Below, piece after piece: positions 109 through 13,373 of a stretch of 13,679 nucleotides of DNA (positions are counted from its first letter, which is position 1; each line of letters starts with the position of its first letter). The notes under the pieces were generated by a model, which searched no databases, was not told where the DNA came from, and saw only the letters and a list, made by a program, of their open reading frames with translations. Source of the stretch: Amoeboradix gromovi X-113 (taxonomy: Eukaryota; Fungi; Sanchytriomycota); contig JADGIF010000230.1 in NCBI GenBank assembly GCA_018985225.1, positions 1 through 13,679 of the forward strand, written 5' to 3'. Made by a program: the position numbers and the translations under genes.

Positions 109-541
109 ATGAAGGTTTGTTAAAATTTGAGAGACTACATCGAAGAAACTTTTGCAATTGTCTGTAGATTTTGAAGCGCATTCCTCTGAAATTCAAACAC
201 TCCTTATGGATCCCGACTTAAGAGTCCTAGTGGACGAGTTATTAGTGAAGTCAACCACCGCTAGTACTGTTGAAAGCATGAGAAAAGCAGCCTTGGATGA
301 ACATACTCAATTAGGTATCCAAAAGGATAAGGATATCGTATTACTACAAAACCAACTACAACAATTGCAGAATCAACTGAACACCAAAAAGCAACAAAAC
401 AAAGTTGTAGAGCTATTAAACACGTATAAAAAACTTACTAACAATATCACGGAACATAATAGCCTTCTTGAGTTCCATAAAAAGAACACATTTAGCCTCA
501 ATTGGGATAACATTGCTGAGTTGGACGCTAATTTAGATTGA
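109..541 (+). CDS. Small coiled-coil protein of unknown function. Proposed model join(109..114,134..541), about 137 aa; alternative start at ATG 206.
   Basis: The frame is open from 131 to the TGA at 539-541 and contains a heptad/Gln-rich helix (LLQNQLQQLQNQLNTKKQQ). The ORF-track start at 152 is TTG, unlikely in a eukaryote. ATG AAG at 109-114 joins in frame if 115..133 is spliced. Confidence 0.6.
115..133 (+). other. Candidate 19-nt spliceosomal intron GTTTGTTAAAATTTGAGAG
   Basis: AAG|GT donor and AG end. Removal gives MK|TTSKKLLQLS in frame. The acceptor is the atypical GAG. Confidence 0.4.
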
Positions 542-3362: not shown

Positions 3363-5021
3363 CTATATAGTAGAATTGATAGCTGCTGATCGTCTGCTTT
3401 TTCTGCCGCCTTTTGTAGCAACTGTAGGATGCTTCAAAAAAAAAGATATTACAAGAACTATCGCACAGAGTCCAAAGAAAGCACCAAATAATAAATAAAC
3501 TAAAGTGCCATTGAACTGTATAGAACTTTGGGCTTGGACAATTACCATAGTTGTTGATGAACTTGGTATATAATCTACAGTTACAGTGTTCTGAACGTAA
3601 AGTGACTGAAATGTTGTAGAGCTTTTCTTGGCACTACTACCACCTAGTCTAGATTTGACCGATTTTTCACGATAGTCTGTGCCAGATTTGCTCTTCTGAA
3701 GCTCTAAATCCCAAGAAGATTTTTGGACATATATTCTGTCTGACGAAGTAGAAGTAACACCTTCACCTGAATGTAATAAATGATAAGAAGTACCATTAAT
3801 ATATGAGTTTGCAGATGACGAAACTGGCAAATATGAAGACACAAAAGATTCTACCGTTGATATTCGTGTGTTATTACGAGTTGCATCAATGTCTTCATCG
3901 GTAAGTGTTCGGGTTGCTGGATTTTCTAACCAGTTTGAAGAACCAGAATCATACTCTTCGATTGATGAAGTTGTCCCGGAAGAAGTTGTGGCTGCGGTGT
4001 CTGTAGCTGCGATAGAGGGTAGAGATGTGTCAAAACTTGAAGGTGTGGAATACAGAAGAGACTCAGCCTTTTCGAATGTGTAATCTGAAATTGCTTCTAC
4101 CTTTGAGGTTATAAAGTGAGCTATGGTACTGCCCTTGATAGTCGTGCTAACGGGTAACAAGACACTTACGGACATGACGCCAGCGGATTTTGTCATAGTG
4201 GTTGACATGGCGGTACTGCCTTGAAGCGTAGAAGTTGTTGCATAATATAGGCCAATTTTCGTGCACATTGGTAACGATTCCAAGTTTTTGCTTCCTAGAA
4301 GTGGATTATCAGATAAATCACAAGACGTTAACAAGCTGTCGTTTGTTATTACCACATCTGTTACGTAGTTTCCCACTGCGTATAAGGATGTAGGTTTGTA
4401 CAAGGTCAAGGTCCCGGCTAATTTATTTCCATTGTTGCTTGTGCCCAACCACAAGATTTTCAAGCTTGTTGGGAATAAAGGCAAAGTTCCGCTCAACATA
4501 TTCCCATAAGCGTAGAAACTTGATAATCTCTTAGGCAAACTCGGGATAGAACCGGTCAAGAGATTGTTACTTAAAGATATTTGGTTGGACCCTCGAATAG
4601 TTTCTGGAATCACTCCGCTTAATTTGTTGTTCCCTAATATGAGATTCACCAATCCTGAGGGATAAGTAGTGGGAAGAGTTCCGTTGAAGTTATTGTTATT
4701 CAATGCCAAATTCAATAAAGTGGATGGGTATGAAAATGATATTCTACCTGTTAATTGATTGTTATTTAATGCCAAAAGCTTGATGGCCGAGGTTAACAGG
4801 GTTCCATTTATGCTACCATCCAATGACATGAGACTCCAGTCTATTTCAGTAACTCTGCCATTTACACAAGTTATTCCTGTTCCAGAGCTGCAGCAGTTTG
4901 TAGTTATCTTATTCATGACTAGTGGTTGATTAATGTCCAAACGCATCCCTTTGGCTAAATTAATCATATTGGGGCAATCTGCCGATATCGCAGCAACCGC
5001 AAAGTTTATCACACAAAACAT
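3363..5021 (-). CDS. Type-I membrane leucine-rich-repeat receptor-like protein (paralog 1)
   Basis: Hydrophobic N-terminal signal, Cys cap (DC...CC...GITCV.GRVTEI.W), plant-type LRRs (LxLxxNxLxGxIP), CDLSDNPLL C-cap, Ser/Thr-rich stalk, TM helix LVYLLFGAFFGLCAIVLVISFFL and a short basic tail. Confidence 0.9.
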   Translation of the reverse strand: MFCVINFAVAAISADCPNMINLAKGMRLDINQPLVMNKITTNCCSSGTGITCVNGRVTEIDWSLMSLDGSINGTLLTSAIKLLALNNNQLTGRISFSYPSTLLNLALNNNNFNGTLPTTYPSGLVNLILGNNKLSGVIPETIRGSNQISLSNNLLTGSIPSLPKRLSSFYAYGNMLSGTLPLFPTSLKILWLGTSNNGNKLAGTLTLYKPTSLYAVGNYVTDVVITNDSLLTSCDLSDNPLLGSKNLESLPMCTKIGLYYATTSTLQGSTAMSTTMTKSAGVMSVSVLLPVSTTIKGSTIAHFITSKVEAISDYTFEKAESLLYSTPSSFDTSLPSIAATDTAATTSSGTTSSIEEYDSGSSNWLENPATRTLTDEDIDATRNNTRISTVESFVSSYLPVSSSANSYINGTSYHLLHSGEGVTSTSSDRIYVQKSSWDLELQKSKSGTDYREKSVKSRLGGSSAKKSSTTFQSLYVQNTVTVDYIPSSSTTMVIVQAQSSIQFNGTLVYLLFGAFFGLCAIVLVISFFLKHPTVATKGGRKSRRSAAINSTI

Positions 5022-5148: not shown

Positions 5149-6678
5149 CTATGCGGTATGTTTTGTACCAACGGTATTTAACGTGGAAAAGCTGTTTCTT
5201 CTTCCGAATCTGGATTGAATTTTGGGATGTTTAAAAAACTTGGATGCAACTAAAACTACAATGCAAGTGGCAATAAATCCAGAAAACAGCCAGTACACCA
5301 ATAAGCCAGAATCATCATTTGAAAACGCAGTCTCGAGACCTGGGTCTTTAGGATTTTGGTAATCAGTTAATGCACTCTGTGTTTCAATTCCATTTATATC
5401 GTCGTCAGACATAAACAAAACTTCATGATGGATGTTTTTGGTACTTGTTAAACCAAGCATGCTAGTAAAATCAGCCTCATTTGAATAATACGACATCTCA
5501 AAGGTAAAAGTTGGAGCAGACAATGAAATTTTCTCTTCCACAGCAGCTCCAGTCTTGTGAGATTCTTTCAAATCCGCTTCTATTGAAGTTTTTGACTGTC
5601 TCTCGACGACAGAACTGGCGTAATAAAGGTTTGTACTCTCTGCTTTTGGAACATAATCATGTACTGACGACAATTTCAGGTATTCAGAAGATAATTTAGT
5701 GATGGGGAATTTTGATGTTGGAATTGTTTCCACTGAGAAGCTGAATTCTTTTTGAGATGAAATGTCTGAGATGGAATAGTTGTTTTGGTGAGTTGTTGTA
5801 TAATCGGAGATCAAAGTTGTTGTCGTTTCTTGCTGATTAACCGAAGAAAAAGAAGTAACCGAGTTTAAAGTAATCGCATCTTGTGATAAAAGTACTGAAG
5901 GGCTGTAGAGTCCATTTTTCAAGCAGTTGACAGATTTGATGTTTGCATTGTCCAAAAGTGGATTATTTGACAAGTCACAAGTACTTGGGGTCAACAAACT
6001 TGAATCTTGTATAATGATGTCAGTAATGTAGTTGCCGTTTATGTATAACATAGAAGGTTTCTCTAGTCTTAGAGTTCCTGATAGCTTGTTAGGAGTGTTG
6101 AATTGAGTACCCAAATACAGCACCTGCAAGTTTTTCGAAAAAGTAGGCAGCAAACCGGTTAGCCTATTTCCTCCTGCGTAAAAGCGCTTCAACAGAGATG
6201 GCAAAGTTGGTATTGGTCCAGTTAAAAAGTTGTTGCTAAGTGAGATTTCAACTGTAGCAACTATGCTTGGTGGAATGCCACCAGTAAGTTGATTGCTTCT
6301 CAGTAAAAGTATCGATAAGCTTGAAGGATACACTATTGGTAAGCTGCCATTCAACTTGTTGTCATTTAAGTACATGCATATCATCTTAGGCGAATAAATA
6401 GATGGAACTTCGCCAACCAGGTTGTTATAACTTAAATCCAAATAAGTAACGAATGGTGGTATCAGTGAGCTATTCACAGCACCGTCCAAAGATAGCTTTT
6501 TCCAGAAAACCTCCGTTACGCGAGAGTCAACACACGTGATACCAGTCGAATTACAACAATCTTTTGATATGTCGTAAAACAATTGAGGCTGTTTCAAATC
6601 CATGTTCAAACCTAGGGCCAGGGTCTTGATGTTTCCGCAATCTATAGATAGTGCGTAAACCAGAAAATACACAATCAT
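5149..6678 (-). CDS. Type-I membrane leucine-rich-repeat receptor-like protein (paralog 2)
   Basis: Same architecture as 3363..5021: DC...CC..TGITCVDSRVTEVFW cap, LDLSYNNLVGEVP-type LRRs, CDLSNNPLL, S/T stalk, TM LLVYWLFSGFIATCIVVLVA and tail KHPKIQSRFGRRNSFSTL. Confidence 0.9.
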   Translation of the reverse strand: MIVYFLVYALSIDCGNIKTLALGLNMDLKQPQLFYDISKDCCNSTGITCVDSRVTEVFWKKLSLDGAVNSSLIPPFVTYLDLSYNNLVGEVPSIYSPKMICMYLNDNKLNGSLPIVYPSSLSILLLRSNQLTGGIPPSIVATVEISLSNNFLTGPIPTLPSLLKRFYAGGNRLTGLLPTFSKNLQVLYLGTQFNTPNKLSGTLRLEKPSMLYINGNYITDIIIQDSSLLTPSTCDLSNNPLLDNANIKSVNCLKNGLYSPSVLLSQDAITLNSVTSFSSVNQQETTTTLISDYTTTHQNNYSISDISSQKEFSFSVETIPTSKFPITKLSSEYLKLSSVHDYVPKAESTNLYYASSVVERQSKTSIEADLKESHKTGAAVEEKISLSAPTFTFEMSYYSNEADFTSMLGLTSTKNIHHEVLFMSDDDINGIETQSALTDYQNPKDPGLETAFSNDDSGLLVYWLFSGFIATCIVVLVASKFFKHPKIQSRFGRRNSFSTLNTVGTKHTA

Positions 6679-6737
6679 TTAGGATAATATCGAGCTTTAA
6701 TTAGTGACCAGACTATATCAATGCGATAAAAATCCGC

Positions 6738-6745
6738 TGATTGGA
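6738..6745 (-). promoter_or_regulatory. Putative CCAAT box (TCCAATCA) upstream of LRR paralog 2
   Basis: Identical 8-mer to 5095..5102, about 60 nt upstream of the ATG at 6678. Confidence 0.3.
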
Positions 6746-7297
6746 TTCTTTTTGCCGTTAAATGGCTGCATTCAATAGCCATCAAAATTAAGAGTAGCTC
6801 TGTTAATATGTAAGAAAAATAAGACAAGAACATAATATACGATTTTGAGGGGATAACAATTTATCGCTATATCATGAGCTATATCGCAACTATGCACTCT
6901 TTAACTACATAAAACAGTACATTTAAAAACTGGCTAAATTGACGTGCACAATTAGAGGAACCACATTGGTTGAGTAAAATGAAGCATTTACTAGTCAAAC
7001 ATATACAAGGCGTGGTACTTCAGAGAAAACCGATTTGGAGAGTAATACATCCACAAACTGTTAGCTAAAAGTAGGTAGAGACTACATGACAGCAAGGAAC
7101 ATATATGTTTGAAACATAAAGCATCGATATTCAATCTGGAATCACAGTAGTGAAAGCGTGGGCAAACACTGTCACAGAGGCACTTGCCGTTTTAGCTTCT
7201 CTGTGAAAGTTCTTAATCTTCTTGTAAATCAGGAATACTAATGAGGAGAAGTTACATGTTCTCTGCATAGCAGAATTCAAAACGTGGTTTTATATTT

Positions 7298-9897
7298 ATG
7301 AATTCTGTTTCTATATCTGGCAATCCAAATATTAATAACCAGTACGTAAAAGCTTCTTGTTCCATGTACAACATCTCAACTCGTCGATTTTTAGGAGCCA
7401 CATTATCAAGAGACTGCAAAATGCCATTTATTTTAAATTTTACAACTAATCATAGCGTCATTATTATTGAACTCTGCACTTTAGATATGTGCTCAAATGG
7501 ATTTTATGTACTCAACATCCAGCTCAATACCTTTCATTACTATCCTGGTACATGTCGCATCCTTCTAAGTGAGCCACTATTTGAATTGGAGTTTATACCA
7601 CATGAATTACAATTCAGATTCTCTGCAACTGATGTGATACTTCCTATCCCTTGTATACTTTCTAAACTACCTGATATGCAGAATATTAGAGTCAAAATAA
7701 TTGATCTGCAATATGATTCAATGGCCATCATTGATCTGATAAATAAATTTCATAAGAACCCTAGGTTTATACGCAACAATTACTATGTTTTGGTTATGTT
7801 TAACGATTACTTGTATGAACAACATTATTTATTAAGTAACACCACCTCTTTACTAACCATCCCTGAAAACAGTCACTTGTTTTTAGTCGTTGAATCCACA
7901 TATGAGCATGTGTCGAACCTAGATGTGTCTGAATTTCGAATATTACTTGGTTGGTGTGCCTTGCCTGCAGAATTGAAACAAAATAAATTGATTCAGAGTA
8001 AATCCCCTTTCCCATTCGAGGCTCATCCCTTGAATGATTCATTTCCGATTCAAGTTCACTATTCTTTGATTGTTGACGAAGTGCAGTCTCATAGCCCTAT
8101 TCTAAGAAGAAGAAGGACTGTCAAACGTAAGCCTTCCATGGAACCTCTTTTAGAACCAGGACTGGTGGATGATGGCATTCATCATAATGCTCCTATGATT
8201 GACAGGGGCATGAGTTTTGCTGATGCAATGAACAATGATCCATCGATTGTCCCCAAATCTGCTGATTCACTTGGCACCCCATTAATGTATGATTCACCTG
8301 CCCATTCATCATTAGAATCTAATATATCAGCAGCTCCAAATACTCTGCACAACTCTGGCTTGCCCGCTTCATTAGATATATCGCTTCCTAGCTCGATTAA
8401 TGCCGTTGCGCCGGATGTATCTGCCCCTCTGATTCCATCTTATAACTATGATTTGAACAAACAGCATGTTGAAAACAATCTGCCTGATGAGAGTAACTCA
8501 AGCATAATTGATTTAAATATAAAAAACTACAATTGTATCTCAATTGTTAATAACAACATTAATAGACAAGTGGTTTCTAAGGAATTACCCAACAACAACT
8601 ACATAACTGTCAGCTGTGCCATTTTTGCATGTATTACCATCAATAACATGGTACTGATCAACAAAAATGAGTATGCTCTAAAGTCTCCAACATTGTACAA
8701 CAAATTATACATAACAGTGGCTGAGTTAAATGACGACTATAATGCGATAAGCAGCAGCAGTTGGGTTTTAGATTTGGATATCCCATGCCACATCTCTATA
8801 AACGATAAAATTAACATACAAATTGGCAGCGAGTGCGTAATAATTGATGATCTAATAACGACGCCAATTAAGCACTTGAACAGATTAGACAGCGGAACGA
8901 GCAACAGCGATGTTTCATTGATTGACATTGACTTATTATTGAGCATTCCTAAGCTTACAGTAAACCAGATATTGGACGCGCAGAGAATTAATAACAGTTT
9001 CGAGATAACAGGGTATGTTTGCGGTGATTTGCATGTACCTGGTGATGAAGCTACAAGTAGTATAAAAAATATTCTGCACAATGATAAGTTGGAAAACAAA
9101 GGATCATCACCCGTTTATTGTAGACCAGTATTTAAGGTAAATTGTGCTGATGAATCTACCGAAATGCTTGCAATATTCACCTGCAAACCATTTCACATGC
9201 AGGTGGATGGCTACAAGTTCCATTATGACTTAGTGCCGTTACTGGGCATCAAGATAAAAACAATAAAAATGACAGAAACAGATGAATTAGAGATCAGTGG
9301 CATTTATGATGACGCCATATTTTATAAAATAGACGTTTTAAACAGATTCAAGCTCCAAAAACATGTGTTTAAGCATAGTTTGATAATTACACCAATAATA
9401 AATGAATCCTGTACACTGATGATTATACAGCTGGCGAAAATTAAAAACGTGCAGGTTACGCCAATAGAGTTGTACATGAACGAAAGCATCAAAGTTGAGG
9501 GCCATGATGTAAAAATTAGAGGAATAAAATTAATCAGCAACAGTGTGAATATACCGATCACCATTTACCCCATAGAGTATATAAATGTTGCAATAAATAT
9601 GAAGACTAAAAAATGTAAAGTTTTTGAAATAAAAAGAAAAATTCAACACAAGGCATATTATAACTAATGTAGCGCATATTATACACCAATAATTTGCTAG
9701 GAAGTGAGAACAAGGTGTTTATAGCATTTAGCCCAAGTAAAGGACTGGAGATTTTGAAAAACAAGGAATTTGAACTGGAATACAACCATCAGATAATAAT
9801 AGACATTAAAATATCTGAGTTAGTGGACATCTACTACGTATTTATCATATCAGACAATGAATGCTGTGAGGAAATTAAGTTTTTGATGAATAAATAG
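7298..9897 (+). CDS. NPHP4: Divergent nephrocystin-4 (ciliary transition-zone protein). Proposed join(7298..9652,9673..9897), about 859 aa.
   Basis: N-terminal motifs are collinear with NPHP4 as recalled: SMYNISTRRFLGAT ~ SFFDVTYRHFFGRT, SVIIIEL ~ IVAVVEV, SNGFYVLNI ~ SCGFGILRI, YYPGTCRILL ~ LYHGTPRALL. There is a central Ser/Pro linker and a beta-rich C-terminal half. The downstream ORF ends YVFIISDNECCEEIKF, resembling the NPHP4 C-terminus ILIYINDHEDKNEEAF. Confidence 0.7.
9653..9672 (+). other. Candidate 20-nt GC-AG intron GCATATTATAACTAATGTAG
   Basis: AAG|GC donor, branch-like ACTAAT immediately before GTAG, and it contains the in-frame TAA. Removal fuses the 789-aa ORF to the 9694..9897 ORF in frame (QHK|RILYTNNLLGSENK). 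Confidence 0.55.
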
Positions 9898-9935
9898 GTT
9901 TATTAAATAGAGAATTAGAGCCTGTTGCAGCATCG

Positions 9936-10520
9936 CTAGTTCACGTTGAATTTAAAAGGAAGTTTGATGTCATAATAATTTGGATATCCCATTTCATCCT
10001 TGATTCCTTGTTCTAATAGTATATGAAAAAAGTTTTCAATTGATTTGAGATTCTTCAGTTTTGTAGCATCACCTATTTTAGACTCAACAACGCAAGATTT
10101 TACAATGTTTTCAAGACCTGTTTCCAAATTAGAGATACCTCTAATGCTAAACTTGATACAATTATCGATGTAGTTGAGATAAATTATTATCGATATTTGA
10201 AGATTGATGCCAAGTTCTATCGGAAGACCTAAAAAGGGCATGTTCGTCGGATAATCGTATGAGAGAGTAAAACCGCCTGTTATATTAACATTTCCAGTGC
10301 ATTTGAGTGAAAGAAAAGTATCGTATCTATGGCGCTGTTGTTGCGGGTTATACCAGCTGTCCTTTGGATCCTGGATATTGAGTATCTGCATGTCTAAACT
10401 TTCAAAAAGAAGAGAGTCTATGTGGATTGACTTGAAATATGGGTTATCCAAATTTTCAATAAGGTCCTTTAATTTATTCTGAGCAAACTCAATTGCTTCA
10501 GGTTCAATAACAATAGACAT
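9936..10520 (-). CDS. MDM12: Mitochondrial distribution and morphology protein 12 (ERMES SMP-domain subunit)
   Basis: MSIVIE start, PYFKSIHIDSLLF, ILNIQDP...WY, LSYDYPTNMPFLGLPIEL, VESKIGD...LKNLKSIENF and DEMGYPNYY are collinear with Mdm12 motifs (MSIDINW, IKDICDP, LDYP..FVGIP, ESEIG..VLKNVGKVEKF, EFVYPSF). Confidence 0.85.
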   Translation of the reverse strand: MSIVIEPEAIEFAQNKLKDLIENLDNPYFKSIHIDSLLFESLDMQILNIQDPKDSWYNPQQQRHRYDTFLSLKCTGNVNITGGFTLSYDYPTNMPFLGLPIELGINLQISIIIYLNYIDNCIKFSIRGISNLETGLENIVKSCVVESKIGDATKLKNLKSIENFFHILLEQGIKDEMGYPNYYDIKLPFKFNVN

Positions 10521-10677: not shown

Positions 10678-11860
10678 ATGCTTATCAAGAAGAATGAATA
10701 TGTTTATAAAAGACCTGTAAATGTAAAATCTGTTGATTACAGTTATTATATACCATTGTTAGCGGACTTATCAGATGAAAAGTCGCTTCTCAAAACTATA
10801 ATCAAGTTAAAGAAACATTCCAGAATTGCTGCACCAATTGAATTAGTCGATCCACTGGTTCCTTTACTGTGTCATCACAACACGCACATTTTACTGAGTG
10901 TTTTGGATATCCTTGCAAGTGTAGTTGTGTTCAGACCAGTCCCAATGAATCTTGTCTATCCTTTAATTCATCACTTAGATTTAAGAATCCAGCAAAACGC
11001 TTGGAACCTCATCTCTAGCTCACTGCATGATGAAGAATGCAGAGATGCCTTGCTAAAAATGTGTATTTTGAATGAAATGAAACTAAACTTGAAAATTAAA
11101 AACTGTAATATTAATGTGCTAAAAACGGTACTGAGTTCGATTTACAACCTTGGATATTACATTTCTCTTCCTGAGGAATATTCTGCTATTATATGCGGCA
11201 ATTTGCTATCAATGCAAGGTGATGTAATTAAGTTTGCATTGTTAATACTTGCACAAATAGCCAACAATTCTATGATGGTGCATGAGATAATGCAGTCTAT
11301 TCATTTGACACAGTTATTTGACCTCATAATCAGCTCTAATGAAGATATTGTGCTAGCAGGGTTAAAGTTTGTACTTTCCTTAACTGCTGGTGACTCAGCT
11401 GATGTCGTTCAGCTTCTGGATTCAAGCCTTGATAAACTATTAGCCTCAGCCAATGATACACATCATGAGCTTGTCGCTTTTATTTTAACGAATGTTGCAC
11501 ATCATAACACTGAAATTCCAATGGCCTATCTAAACAAACTTGAAGAATCGGACTATGAGCTGATTTGCGTTCTAATTGAAAAAGATGTTACCCTCGTCCC
11601 GCGCATTGCAGAAACTTGGATTCCAATTTTGATTGCGAATATGAATGACCCGAACTCACTGTATGCATTAAAAGTGATATTTGAGTATGGGAAGTGCAAC
11701 AAAGGTAACAAAGTTTTATTTAGATAACAAATATGTAGCGGCTGCTCGAAAGCATCAGATAGAATCAAAGCTAGGTTTAATGAGCTCCAAATTCGCATTC
11801 GGTCTTATTGACTTGTACTTTGATGACAGCTTAGTTGACTGGGTTTTTGTCAATAAATAG
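10678..11860 (+). CDS. Divergent importin-alpha-like ARM-repeat protein. Proposed join(10678..11704,11724..11860), about 387 aa.
   Basis: Helical ARM repeats (LVDPLVPLLCHHN, IQQNAWNLIS, LIISSNEDIVLAGLKFVLSLTAGD, ELVAFILTNVA, ALKVIFEYG). The spliced last exon gives DNKYVAAA...AFGLIDLYFD, matching the importin-alpha ARM10 pattern (NPYA...AYxIIxxYF). Confidence 0.7.
11705..11723 (+). other. Candidate 19-nt GT-AG intron GTAACAAAGTTTTATTTAG
   Basis: AAG|GTAA donor and TTTAG acceptor. Removal switches to a frame open to TAG 11860 that encodes the expected family C-terminus. An in-frame alternative acceptor at 11738 would give 34 nt. Confidence 0.7.
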
Positions 11861-12452
11861 TGTTTTTCGCAATAACTAGAAAAACTCTTTACAAAAAACA
11901 TCTCAAGTAGCATCAGTTGGGTAAATGTATCATAATTCTAACTGGCCATGCTCAAAGTGGCAGTTTGCTGTTGTCAGTACCTTGAACTCCACTCACCACT
12001 GTATTTAGAAATAAACAGATCATTCTTCTTATATCAAATAAAAATGGTGAAGTCTTATACGATACACAACCATAGTGTGCTTGCTTTGCTTATCAATGCA
12101 ATAGCCATAGTAGTAAATTTTTAAATCCTATTTACACTGACTCTAATTTTATTGTCTTTATATCTGCATTATCGCGCTTTTGTTTGTAGCGAATGTATTT
12201 TCTATCACGAGCTCTTCAACACCAACAAATTTCTGCTAAGTCAGTATATCTTGCGCTAATTTAAGGTCACCGTAATGGCCTTTTACGTTTAATATGTAGC
12301 TTAGAAAATCAGGGCACCTGCAAATATGAATTGGCTAGTTTTTGCAGCGGATTTGCAATGGTATATTAAAGATTAGTTAGAATTTGTCGTATGTTTACGC
12401 CATCGGTGGCCATAAAAAGCTAGAAATTCCACAGAATTTTAATAAATGTTTA

Positions 12453-13373
12453 TTAAGAAAACCCTTCTTCTTCATTTATTTCCTGAATATTTATCGGAGA
12501 TGGGGCATTCATAGCATGCGGTACTTGAGGAATGTTTGCAGATATCGTATTAGATAGTTTCGCTACTTCAACGTCCAAAAACATAACTATGTCCCTAATA
12601 TTCTTTTCAACAGACTTATGGTTTCCTGAAATTACATCCTCAATTATTAACTGAGCGGCCGACAATTCAGTCGGCAATTCTATATTTCCGCCACCTAGTA
12701 ATGCGATTGACGCACTGCTACCTCCCAAATTTGATATGCACTCATTCATGTAGTTTGTGGCATTTTCTGCCTCATTTATAGCCAAATATATGATGACAAT
12801 CGACAGCTGTACTTTTGGAATTCCTGGCTTCTTGTAACTAGCGAGTACCAATACTTGTTTCTTATACAATTCAATTGCCTTTTTATACAATTTGTTCTTC
12901 AAAAAGAATCCAGTGCTCTTCTTAAAAATATCATGGGATAACAAACCTTTATCATTATCGACTAGCACATCAACTGCCTTGGTGTAAAAACTTCCGGCAC
13001 CAGTAATATCGTTTGCAGATTCTGCAGCTTGGGCAGCGTTACTAAACATATCACTGGCGGTGTCGTTTTGTGCTAGTTTACGATACAAATCACCAGCTTT
13101 ATCAAAAGCAATAACACTCTCAGGTAACTTACTGCTTCTTTTTAGCAACTTTGCTAGCAGTTCCTGACATTTCGCGGCTTCAAATATAATACCAGCTTTG
13201 ATTAGATTTTCGGTAGCACACTCATAGCAAGTGATGGCCTCAGTAACATCTGTATTTGCAAAAACACCAGCAGCACGTTGATAATATATTCCGATGTTTT
13301 CATAGTCCGGTGCCCAACCAAATGACAGAAATGGCTTCTTTTGTAAGTCCAAGGCTTTTTGTTTATGCTCCAT
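12453..13373 (-). CDS. NAPG: Gamma-soluble NSF attachment protein (gamma-SNAP)
   Basis: KPFLSFGWAPDYENIGIYYQRAAGVF resembles gamma-SNAP FLKWKPDYDSAASEYGKAAVAF. It also has FEAAKCQE, TPR-like helices, FLDVEVAKL (~YMDNDYAKL) and an acidic C-terminus EEEGFS. Confidence 0.85.
   Translation of the reverse strand: MEHKQKALDLQKKPFLSFGWAPDYENIGIYYQRAAGVFANTDVTEAITCYECATENLIKAGIIFEAAKCQELLAKLLKRSSKLPESVIAFDKAGDLYRKLAQNDTASDMFSNAAQAAESANDITGAGSFYTKAVDVLVDNDKGLLSHDIFKKSTGFFLKNKLYKKAIELYKKQVLVLASYKKPGIPKVQLSIVIIYLAINEAENATNYMNECISNLGGSSASIALLGGGNIELPTELSAAQLIIEDVISGNHKSVEKNIRDIVMFLDVEVAKLSNTISANIPQVPHAMNAPSPINIQEINEEEGFS

Follow-up and report, generated by a model that had tools for sequence, protein, structure and literature searches.

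A 20 nt segment at positions 9653–9672 (forward strand) of contig JADGIF010000230.1 of Amoeboradix gromovi X-113 probably serves as a working U2-type spliceosomal intron that has a GC donor and occupies an ancestral GT-AG site. The segment, GCATATTATAACTAATGTAG, was found in the 13 679 bp of that contig analysed here (the window). It begins with GC and ends with AG, is 25% G+C, and is preceded by AAG and followed by CGC. The upstream frame is stopped within the segment by TAA at 9665–9667, and the downstream frame is also stopped within it, by TAG at 9670–9672, so that the two cannot be joined by read-through or by a plain frameshift. When 9653–9672 is cut out as a phase-0 intron, an open frame of 859 residues (785 codons plus 74 codons) extends from 7298 to 9897. 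A branch-point-like ACTAAT is present at 9663–9668, and its predicted branch A (9667) is at position −6 relative to the acceptor. These features, together with the in-frame stop, agree with the description of the segment in a first-pass annotation. That annotation had also placed an open reading frame without an ATG at 9694–9897; it does come into frame after removal of the 20 nt, but the open frame is 9673–9897, 9694 is merely the position of its first TTG, and one ATG exists three codons before the stop.

Judged from sequence only, the segment thus has GC..AG ends and a YTAAY-like branch motif, and its removal restores the frame at a position shared with orthologs. The 20 nt cut can be placed in three equivalent registers, and only one of these has spliceosomal ends (GC..AG), the others being AG..GT and GG..TA. 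U12-type introns carry an RTATCCTT donor and a CCTTAAC branch motif, and neither was found within the 20 nt. A first loose intron scan of the window returned out-of-frame candidates too numerous to be useful. In dinucleotide shuffles of the 375 bases from 9561 to 9935, a comparable bridge arose in 1 of 2000, where a bridge was defined as an 18–22 nt G(T/C)..A(−6)..AG segment linking the long ORF to at least 70 open codons, thresholds that were set with knowledge of this case.

Exon 1 (7298–9652, forward strand) comprises 785 codons, the last of which is AAG (Lys), and is delimited by the ORF and by three orthologs. Its intron-blind product is carried in EukProt as a 789 aa protein (P0001). Exon 2 (9673–9897, forward strand) comprises 74 codons that begin with RILYTNN and is closed by a TAG at 9895–9897; the open frame, its codon usage and the tails of the orthologs all support it. 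Its coding character is evident in three respects. Just 2 of 1000 stop-free random frames fit the genes of the window as well in codon usage. The distance from the end of exon 2 to the next, convergent gene is 38 nt, where an end at 9667 would leave 268 nt; the other convergent gaps in the window are 12 and 46 nt. Finally, an AATAAA that is likely to be the polyadenylation signal lies in the last codons of exon 2 (9889–9894, forward strand), at −8 of the spliced stop. An AATAAA is found between −12 and +35 of the stop, a range chosen post hoc, at six of the seven other gene ends (background 330/5000), and none is found in this range at the unspliced stop. A further AATAAA at 9628 precedes the unspliced stop by 39 nt, and a truncated transcript could make use of it. 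The predicted spliced ends of this gene and of a second gene in the window (9889–9897 and 11852–11860, both forward strand) are the same nine bases, AATAAA then TAG, with the poly(A)-like signal forming the final two codons, and in two further genes AATAAA overlaps the stop.

A query of 1.84 billion representative proteins with the C-terminal 355 residues of the long ORF returned seven matches. One was the window protein itself and three were full-length orthologs (P0014, P0015 and P0016; E values 1e-63 to 1e-42) that are 44%, 44% and 40% identical to it. P0016 comes from the algal parasite Sanchytrium tribonematis; the other two, P0014 and P0015, are ENA proteins. The remaining three (P0017–P0019) were repetitive Glomeromycota proteins that matched within a single 52-residue stretch and were discarded as unrelated. 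The similarity of all three orthologs ends after the same Lys. The next residue is Ala (GCA) in the window and Val (GTN) in all three orthologs, in which Val makes up approximately 7% of residues. The published sanchytrid proteomes are described as TransDecoder predictions from genomic contigs, made without intron models (PMC8371127). Calls of this kind would explain why all of these proteins stop matching at the same site, and, as the proteins read into the intron, their tails would carry intron sequence.

The tails were therefore back-translated to find which length of GT/GC..AG intron would let each encode the exon 2 of the window in another frame. For both P0014 and P0016, the best solution was a 19 nt GT..AG intron followed by RILYTNN, with scores of 37 and 54, respectively, against 0 and 8 for the next-best lengths. 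The 19 nt score was reached by 1 of 300 shuffled P0014 tails and 0 of 300 shuffled P0016 tails, and by none of the 2000 and 1000 random tails, respectively. The tail of P0015 is only six residues and a stop, which is uninformative on exon 2; it fits an intron of 21 nt (with a TAG acceptor) or 22 nt, and 21 nt is probably correct. The relatives are thus likely to keep 19–21 base GT-AG introns at this position. In the 19, 19 and 21 nt readings, as back-inferred from the protein tails, an A at −6 and a T at +5 are forced. Together with the window, all four orthologous introns have A at −6, while position +5 is T, T, T and A, and is G in none. Taken alone, the A at −6 for two independently fixed lengths is modest evidence, as we estimate that it would arise by chance about once in eight times in AT-rich DNA.

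Attempts to recover ortholog DNA returned nothing. Protein patterns gave 377, 499 and 118 matches in metagenome, viral and prokaryote collections, none of which was confirmed. A DNA pattern made up of the acceptor and the start of exon 2 matched at least 119 loci (approximately 140 estimated), none of which had a tblastn match at an E value of 0.01 to the four proteins or exon 2. The most intron-like among the matches listed proved to be the upstream flank of an opposite-strand gene, which we take to be Hsp90-like.

The first-pass annotation had pointed to a GT at 9620 as an alternative donor, and the 53 nt cut from this position is indeed in frame. It has canonical GT-AG ends and starts 33 nt before the GC, at the closest GT that is in frame; it would remove 11 further codons to leave 848 residues. 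However, those codons (9620–9652, residues 775–785, VFEIKRKIQHK) are conserved: a check against orthologs, proposed in the same annotation, found 5, 8 and 7 of the 11 residues identical in the three orthologs, and just 9 of the 346 eleven-residue windows in residues 430–785 equal this conservation, placing the stretch among the best conserved in the C-terminal half. The donor is not conserved, as the corresponding column in the orthologs is L, V and T, and GT is impossible in two of the three. Scored against the U1-complementary consensus, the 9620 donor is also the weakest of the four tested (4 of 11 positions), and a length of 53 nt is far from the 19–21 nt of the orthologs. Codon usage of 9620–9652 was uninformative (274/1000). 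As the stretch is conserved and the donor is not, the 20 nt intron is favoured, and splicing from 9620 is very unlikely. Restoration of the frame, the break point shared with orthologs and retention of residues 775–785 all identify the 20 nt GC-AG intron of the first-pass annotation as the best reading.

The donor at 9653 is not strong. It fits the consensus at 5 of 11 positions, compared with 7 of 11 for a GT candidate at 11705, although the standard consensus used may differ from what the U1 of this organism recognises. GC donors usually compensate by a stronger match to the consensus elsewhere, which is typical rather than a strict requirement, and a strong U1 match was not found around this one. 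The first 10 nt of the intron (9653–9662, forward strand) are an exact copy of 9674–9683, which are bases 2–11 of exon 2, 21 bases downstream. The window holds two exact direct repeats of at least 10 nt at a spacing of no more than 40 nt, and one of them begins exactly at the donor. At only 2 of 13 529 window positions are the first 10 nt repeated in this way; for any 10-mer of a 20-base stretch, the figures are 44 of 13 529 window positions and 99 of 20 000 random sequences. The other repeat, at 12862–12892 (forward strand), likewise has a 21 nt spacing and is inside a SNAP-family gene. The first codon of exon 2, CGC, is a rare Arg codon (6 of the 86 Arg codons counted in six genes of the window), and both informative orthologs (P0014 and P0016) need AGA at this position.

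The GC donor is likely to have arisen via a local templated copy from the start of exon 2. The 5′ half of an ancestral GT intron would have been overwritten by the 10-base copy, by slippage or templated break repair, and the change may have survived because the length of the intron and the G at +1 stayed as they were. Conversions of GT to GC donors are known in mammals (PMC7242645). The same repeat keeps two rival explanations alive, as it suggests a sudden and possibly recent change that may have damaged splicing or may be an amplification artefact.

Under the first of these, the donor of the ancestral intron has been broken, most or all transcripts retain the intron, and translation stops at 9667 after 789 residues. 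Exon 2 would then be a remnant, still intact but decaying, in a lineage on its way to losing the flagellum. The weak donor, the abrupt event to which the repeat-derived 5′ half points and the AATAAA at 9628 would all fit, sanchytrids are reported to be without many flagellar genes (PMC8371127), and the short introns of microsporidia are spliced on average at less than 20% (PMC6349667). Against this, exon 2 has kept 74 open codons, its codon usage is normal and an AATAAA stands at its end, and the AATAAA at 9628 falls within conserved codons. The length, the G at +1, the branch A and the acceptor of the intron are all intact. Moreover, the GT donors of the orthologs likewise have no G at +5, so little donor strength seems to be needed. 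We consider retention unlikely.

The second holds that the intron is real but that the GC was introduced during amplification or assembly, by a base error or a template switch, and that the organism has GT. All three orthologs have a GT-compatible codon here, and a 10 nt repeat that starts exactly at the donor could be left behind by template switching. Published sanchytrid genomes were derived from whole-genome amplification (PMC8371127). Yet a chimera would have required two switches that together left the intron no more than 1 nt different in length from those of the orthologs. As for a base error, true GC donors are much more common than single-base errors in a consensus sequence. In human and mouse, GC donors are found in approximately 0.8% of coding introns (PMC7242645). 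An artefact is accordingly improbable, more so than retention.

Removal or bypass of the segment by other means (Ire1-type or tRNA-type cutting, a ribosomal hop or a frameshift) is extremely unlikely. Ire1-type introns are similar in length, and the segment folds as a weak hairpin, with a z score of −2.1 for the 71 nt region; the hairpin of the intron alone, however, is no better than those of shuffled sequences (49/200). Ire1-type (HAC1/XBP1) introns have CNG|CNG loops on stem-loops at both cut sites, and such a loop is absent from both ends here in all seven registers, with folds that put the cuts outside loops. The introns of the orthologs appear to run from GT to AG with A at −6, and a simple frameshift is ruled out because both frames contain stops.

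For a GC-AG intron of 20 nt, we propose that the spliceosome would use the A at −6 for branching and the AG that closely follows as the acceptor. The donor would be found mainly via its distance (13–15 bases upstream of the branch A), the G at +1 and the exonic AG, and because these would define the donor, a C at +2 could be tolerated. Splicing would add 74 residues and yield an 859-residue protein, possibly a shortened NPHP4-like transition-zone protein, the family assignment being a lead. The intron may stay in some of the transcripts, as is often the case for short introns in microsporidia. The broader proposal is that the sanchytrid spliceosome is ruler-like, cutting 19–21 base introns via a branch A at −6, the AG and the G at +1, and lax enough to accept a GC derived from a repeat; we regard this as evenly balanced between true and false. 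The first-pass annotation had suggested that length and branch position, more than donor consensus, define introns here. The weak donor, the A at −6 in four of four cases and the absence of a G at +5 in all four, although few, agree with that idea, but a genome-wide mode of intron definition cannot rest on one GC donor.

A second candidate micro-intron, detected in the bridge scan, counts for the micro-intron reading. It is a 19 nt, phase 1 GT-AG segment at 11705–11723 (forward strand), with AAG before it and an A at −6, in a neighbouring armadillo-repeat gene that extends from 10678 on and has armadillo matches in PDB. Its removal extends this gene by 44 codons to 11860, lengthening the product from 349 to 387 residues; the ORF in EukProt stops before the extension. 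The codon usage of the 44 codons is matched by 9 in 1000, and AATAAA is found at −8 of the new stop and is absent near the unspliced stop. The extension (11726–11857), which may be importin-alpha-like, had no Pfam match and no convincing match in PDB. A weaker 19 nt GT..AG candidate at 115–133 (forward strand) follows ATG AAG, but has no A at −6 and ends in GAG; its removal would give a coiled-coil-like ORF at 131–541 a start. The earlier statement that AAG precedes all three candidate donors is true for 115, 9653 and 11705, which are probably the candidate introns of the window that were meant, but AAA precedes 9620.

The window is compact and AT-rich (30–46% G+C in 500-base windows), with long uninterrupted ORFs, and five of the eight window proteins that were looked up are present in EukProt as plain ORFs. 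On the reverse strand, a protein kinase gene lies at 554–2218 (Pfam Pkinase, E value 2e-40); its first ATG is just before the glycine-rich loop, and we take the kinase to be polo-like. Two tandem genes, at 3363–5021 and 5149–6678 (reverse strand), encode a signal-like start, leucine-rich repeats, a long Ser/Thr-rich stalk and a C-terminal hydrophobic segment, and their products look like surface receptor-like proteins. The 552-residue leucine-rich repeat protein of the first (P0005; 3366–5021, reverse strand) clustered with eight JGI peptides of 40–52 residues, which is probably a clustering artefact. The convergent neighbour at 9936–10517 (reverse strand) encodes approximately 193 residues with no Pfam match; it may resemble the SMP-domain protein Mdm12. 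Two gaps of approximately 600 nt (6679–7297 and 11861–12452) are large for this genome. Searches found neither a long ORF nor a tRNA or Rfam match in them, and small genes with micro-introns, or divergent RNAs, may be hidden there. Across the window, Rfam and ARAGORN searches found nothing credible and no snRNA.

The gene interrupted by the intron probably has NPHP4 ancestry, as indicated by an Atlas lead together with features known to us from the family. With exon 1 as the query, the Nephrocystin-4 cluster was third in rank in the Atlas with a score of 0.88, which is under 0.9 and, with low recognition, amounts to a lead. PF28126 is found in 83% of the members of this cluster; unnamed eukaryotic clusters were also among those nearest to exon 1, and other ciliary C2 clusters ranked below. 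NPHP4 proteins have C2 domains in the N-terminal part and Ig-like repeats towards the C-terminus, and the last of these repeats would be expected in exon 2. The N-terminal motifs, and F-E-I and R-I-x-Y-x-N beside the junction, in our view resemble NPHP4. Searches of Pfam and PDB with exon 1 gave no match. No named full-length NPHP4 was found among 3801 long candidates at an E value of 10, which is weak evidence, or among the seven matches of the C-terminal search. Word-based protein searches returned only the window's own protein for exon 1, and nothing for exon 2 or for longer proteins. AlphaFold models of exon 1 (pLDDT 36) and exon 2 (pLDDT 47, two strands) were too poor to use, and Foldseek found no match to them at an E value of 0.001. 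The NPHP4-like C-terminus claimed earlier found no support, as exon 2 had no NPHP4 match in any tool. Nor is the term full-length NPHP4 supported, since canonical NPHP4 is roughly 1400 residues, against 859 here, and support for the family is the Atlas lead. If it is NPHP4, the product would be a much shortened member, complete for this lineage rather than full-length, in keeping with the reduced flagellum described for sanchytrids (PMC8371127).

Introns of similar size are known elsewhere. Those of Stentor coeruleus are 15–16 nt with GU..AG ends (PMC9505925). They are similarly ultra-short, have a weak branch consensus and place the branch A at nucleotide 10 (of 15) or 11 (of 16), which again corresponds to −6 from the 3′ end. 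Unlike A. gromovi, S. coeruleus is a ciliate with thousands of introns, which are shorter and have a strict GUA start, where GCA is found here; the term GC-AG is absent from the main text of that report (PMC9505925). Chlorarachniophyte nucleomorph introns are 18–23 nt, with a donor motif that ends after the first two bases (PMC6461891, PMC10245619). However, nucleomorphs are remnant nuclei of endosymbionts with 800–1000 introns per genome and no reported branch signature (PMC2483917), whereas the intron described here is in the main nucleus of a fungus that looks intron-poor. Mikrocytids are also parasites and have a few hundred introns in a narrow range of 16–17 nt (PMC10245619), but they are rhizarians with a highly conserved intron sequence, and the sanchytrid introns described here share little beyond their ends and the A at −6. 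Myxozoans and dicyemids have intron medians down to 22 nt (PMC13644364).

Among reduced, fungus-related parasites, microsporidia have few and very short introns, approximately 25 nt in Encephalitozoon cuniculi (PMC6349667). Yarrowia, Trichomonas and Giardia share a branch point at a fixed short distance from the AG and the lack of a pyrimidine tract, but have strong consensus sequences and mostly longer introns (PMC2483917). Mammalian U2-type GC-AG introns are similar in that GC follows an exonic AG where relatives have GT. However, they are described in long introns (PMC7242645), whereas the intron here is 20 nt, has almost no other donor match and apparently acquired its GC in a 10 nt templated copy, not through a point change. 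Published work that pairs GC-AG with ultra-short introns concerns plants, fly and human, in the sources found. A search conducted mostly outside subscription journals found no published description of sanchytrid introns.

Ultra-short introns, a fixed distance from branch to AG and the conversion of GT to GC are already known. What is likely to be new is a single position followed across four species, with a GC donor among them and a probable templated origin for that donor. Introns of approximately 20 bases probe the physical lower limit of the spliceosome, and this site is a natural experiment: in four species, the intron appears to be 19, 19, 20 and probably 21 nt, with a GT donor in three and GC in one. 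It can tell which signals matter in introns that have no room for the usual set, and its 10-base repeat points to a specific way in which a donor can change. If the ruler-like model is true, no fungal introns in the literature compared here would be as short as those of this phylum, and the intron-blind public proteomes of the phylum would lack many gene ends. Because sanchytrid proteins have been called without introns, the gene is truncated in all four public records. Claims that sanchytrids have lost or shortened genes, among them ciliary genes, call for re-annotation that allows introns below 20 nt.
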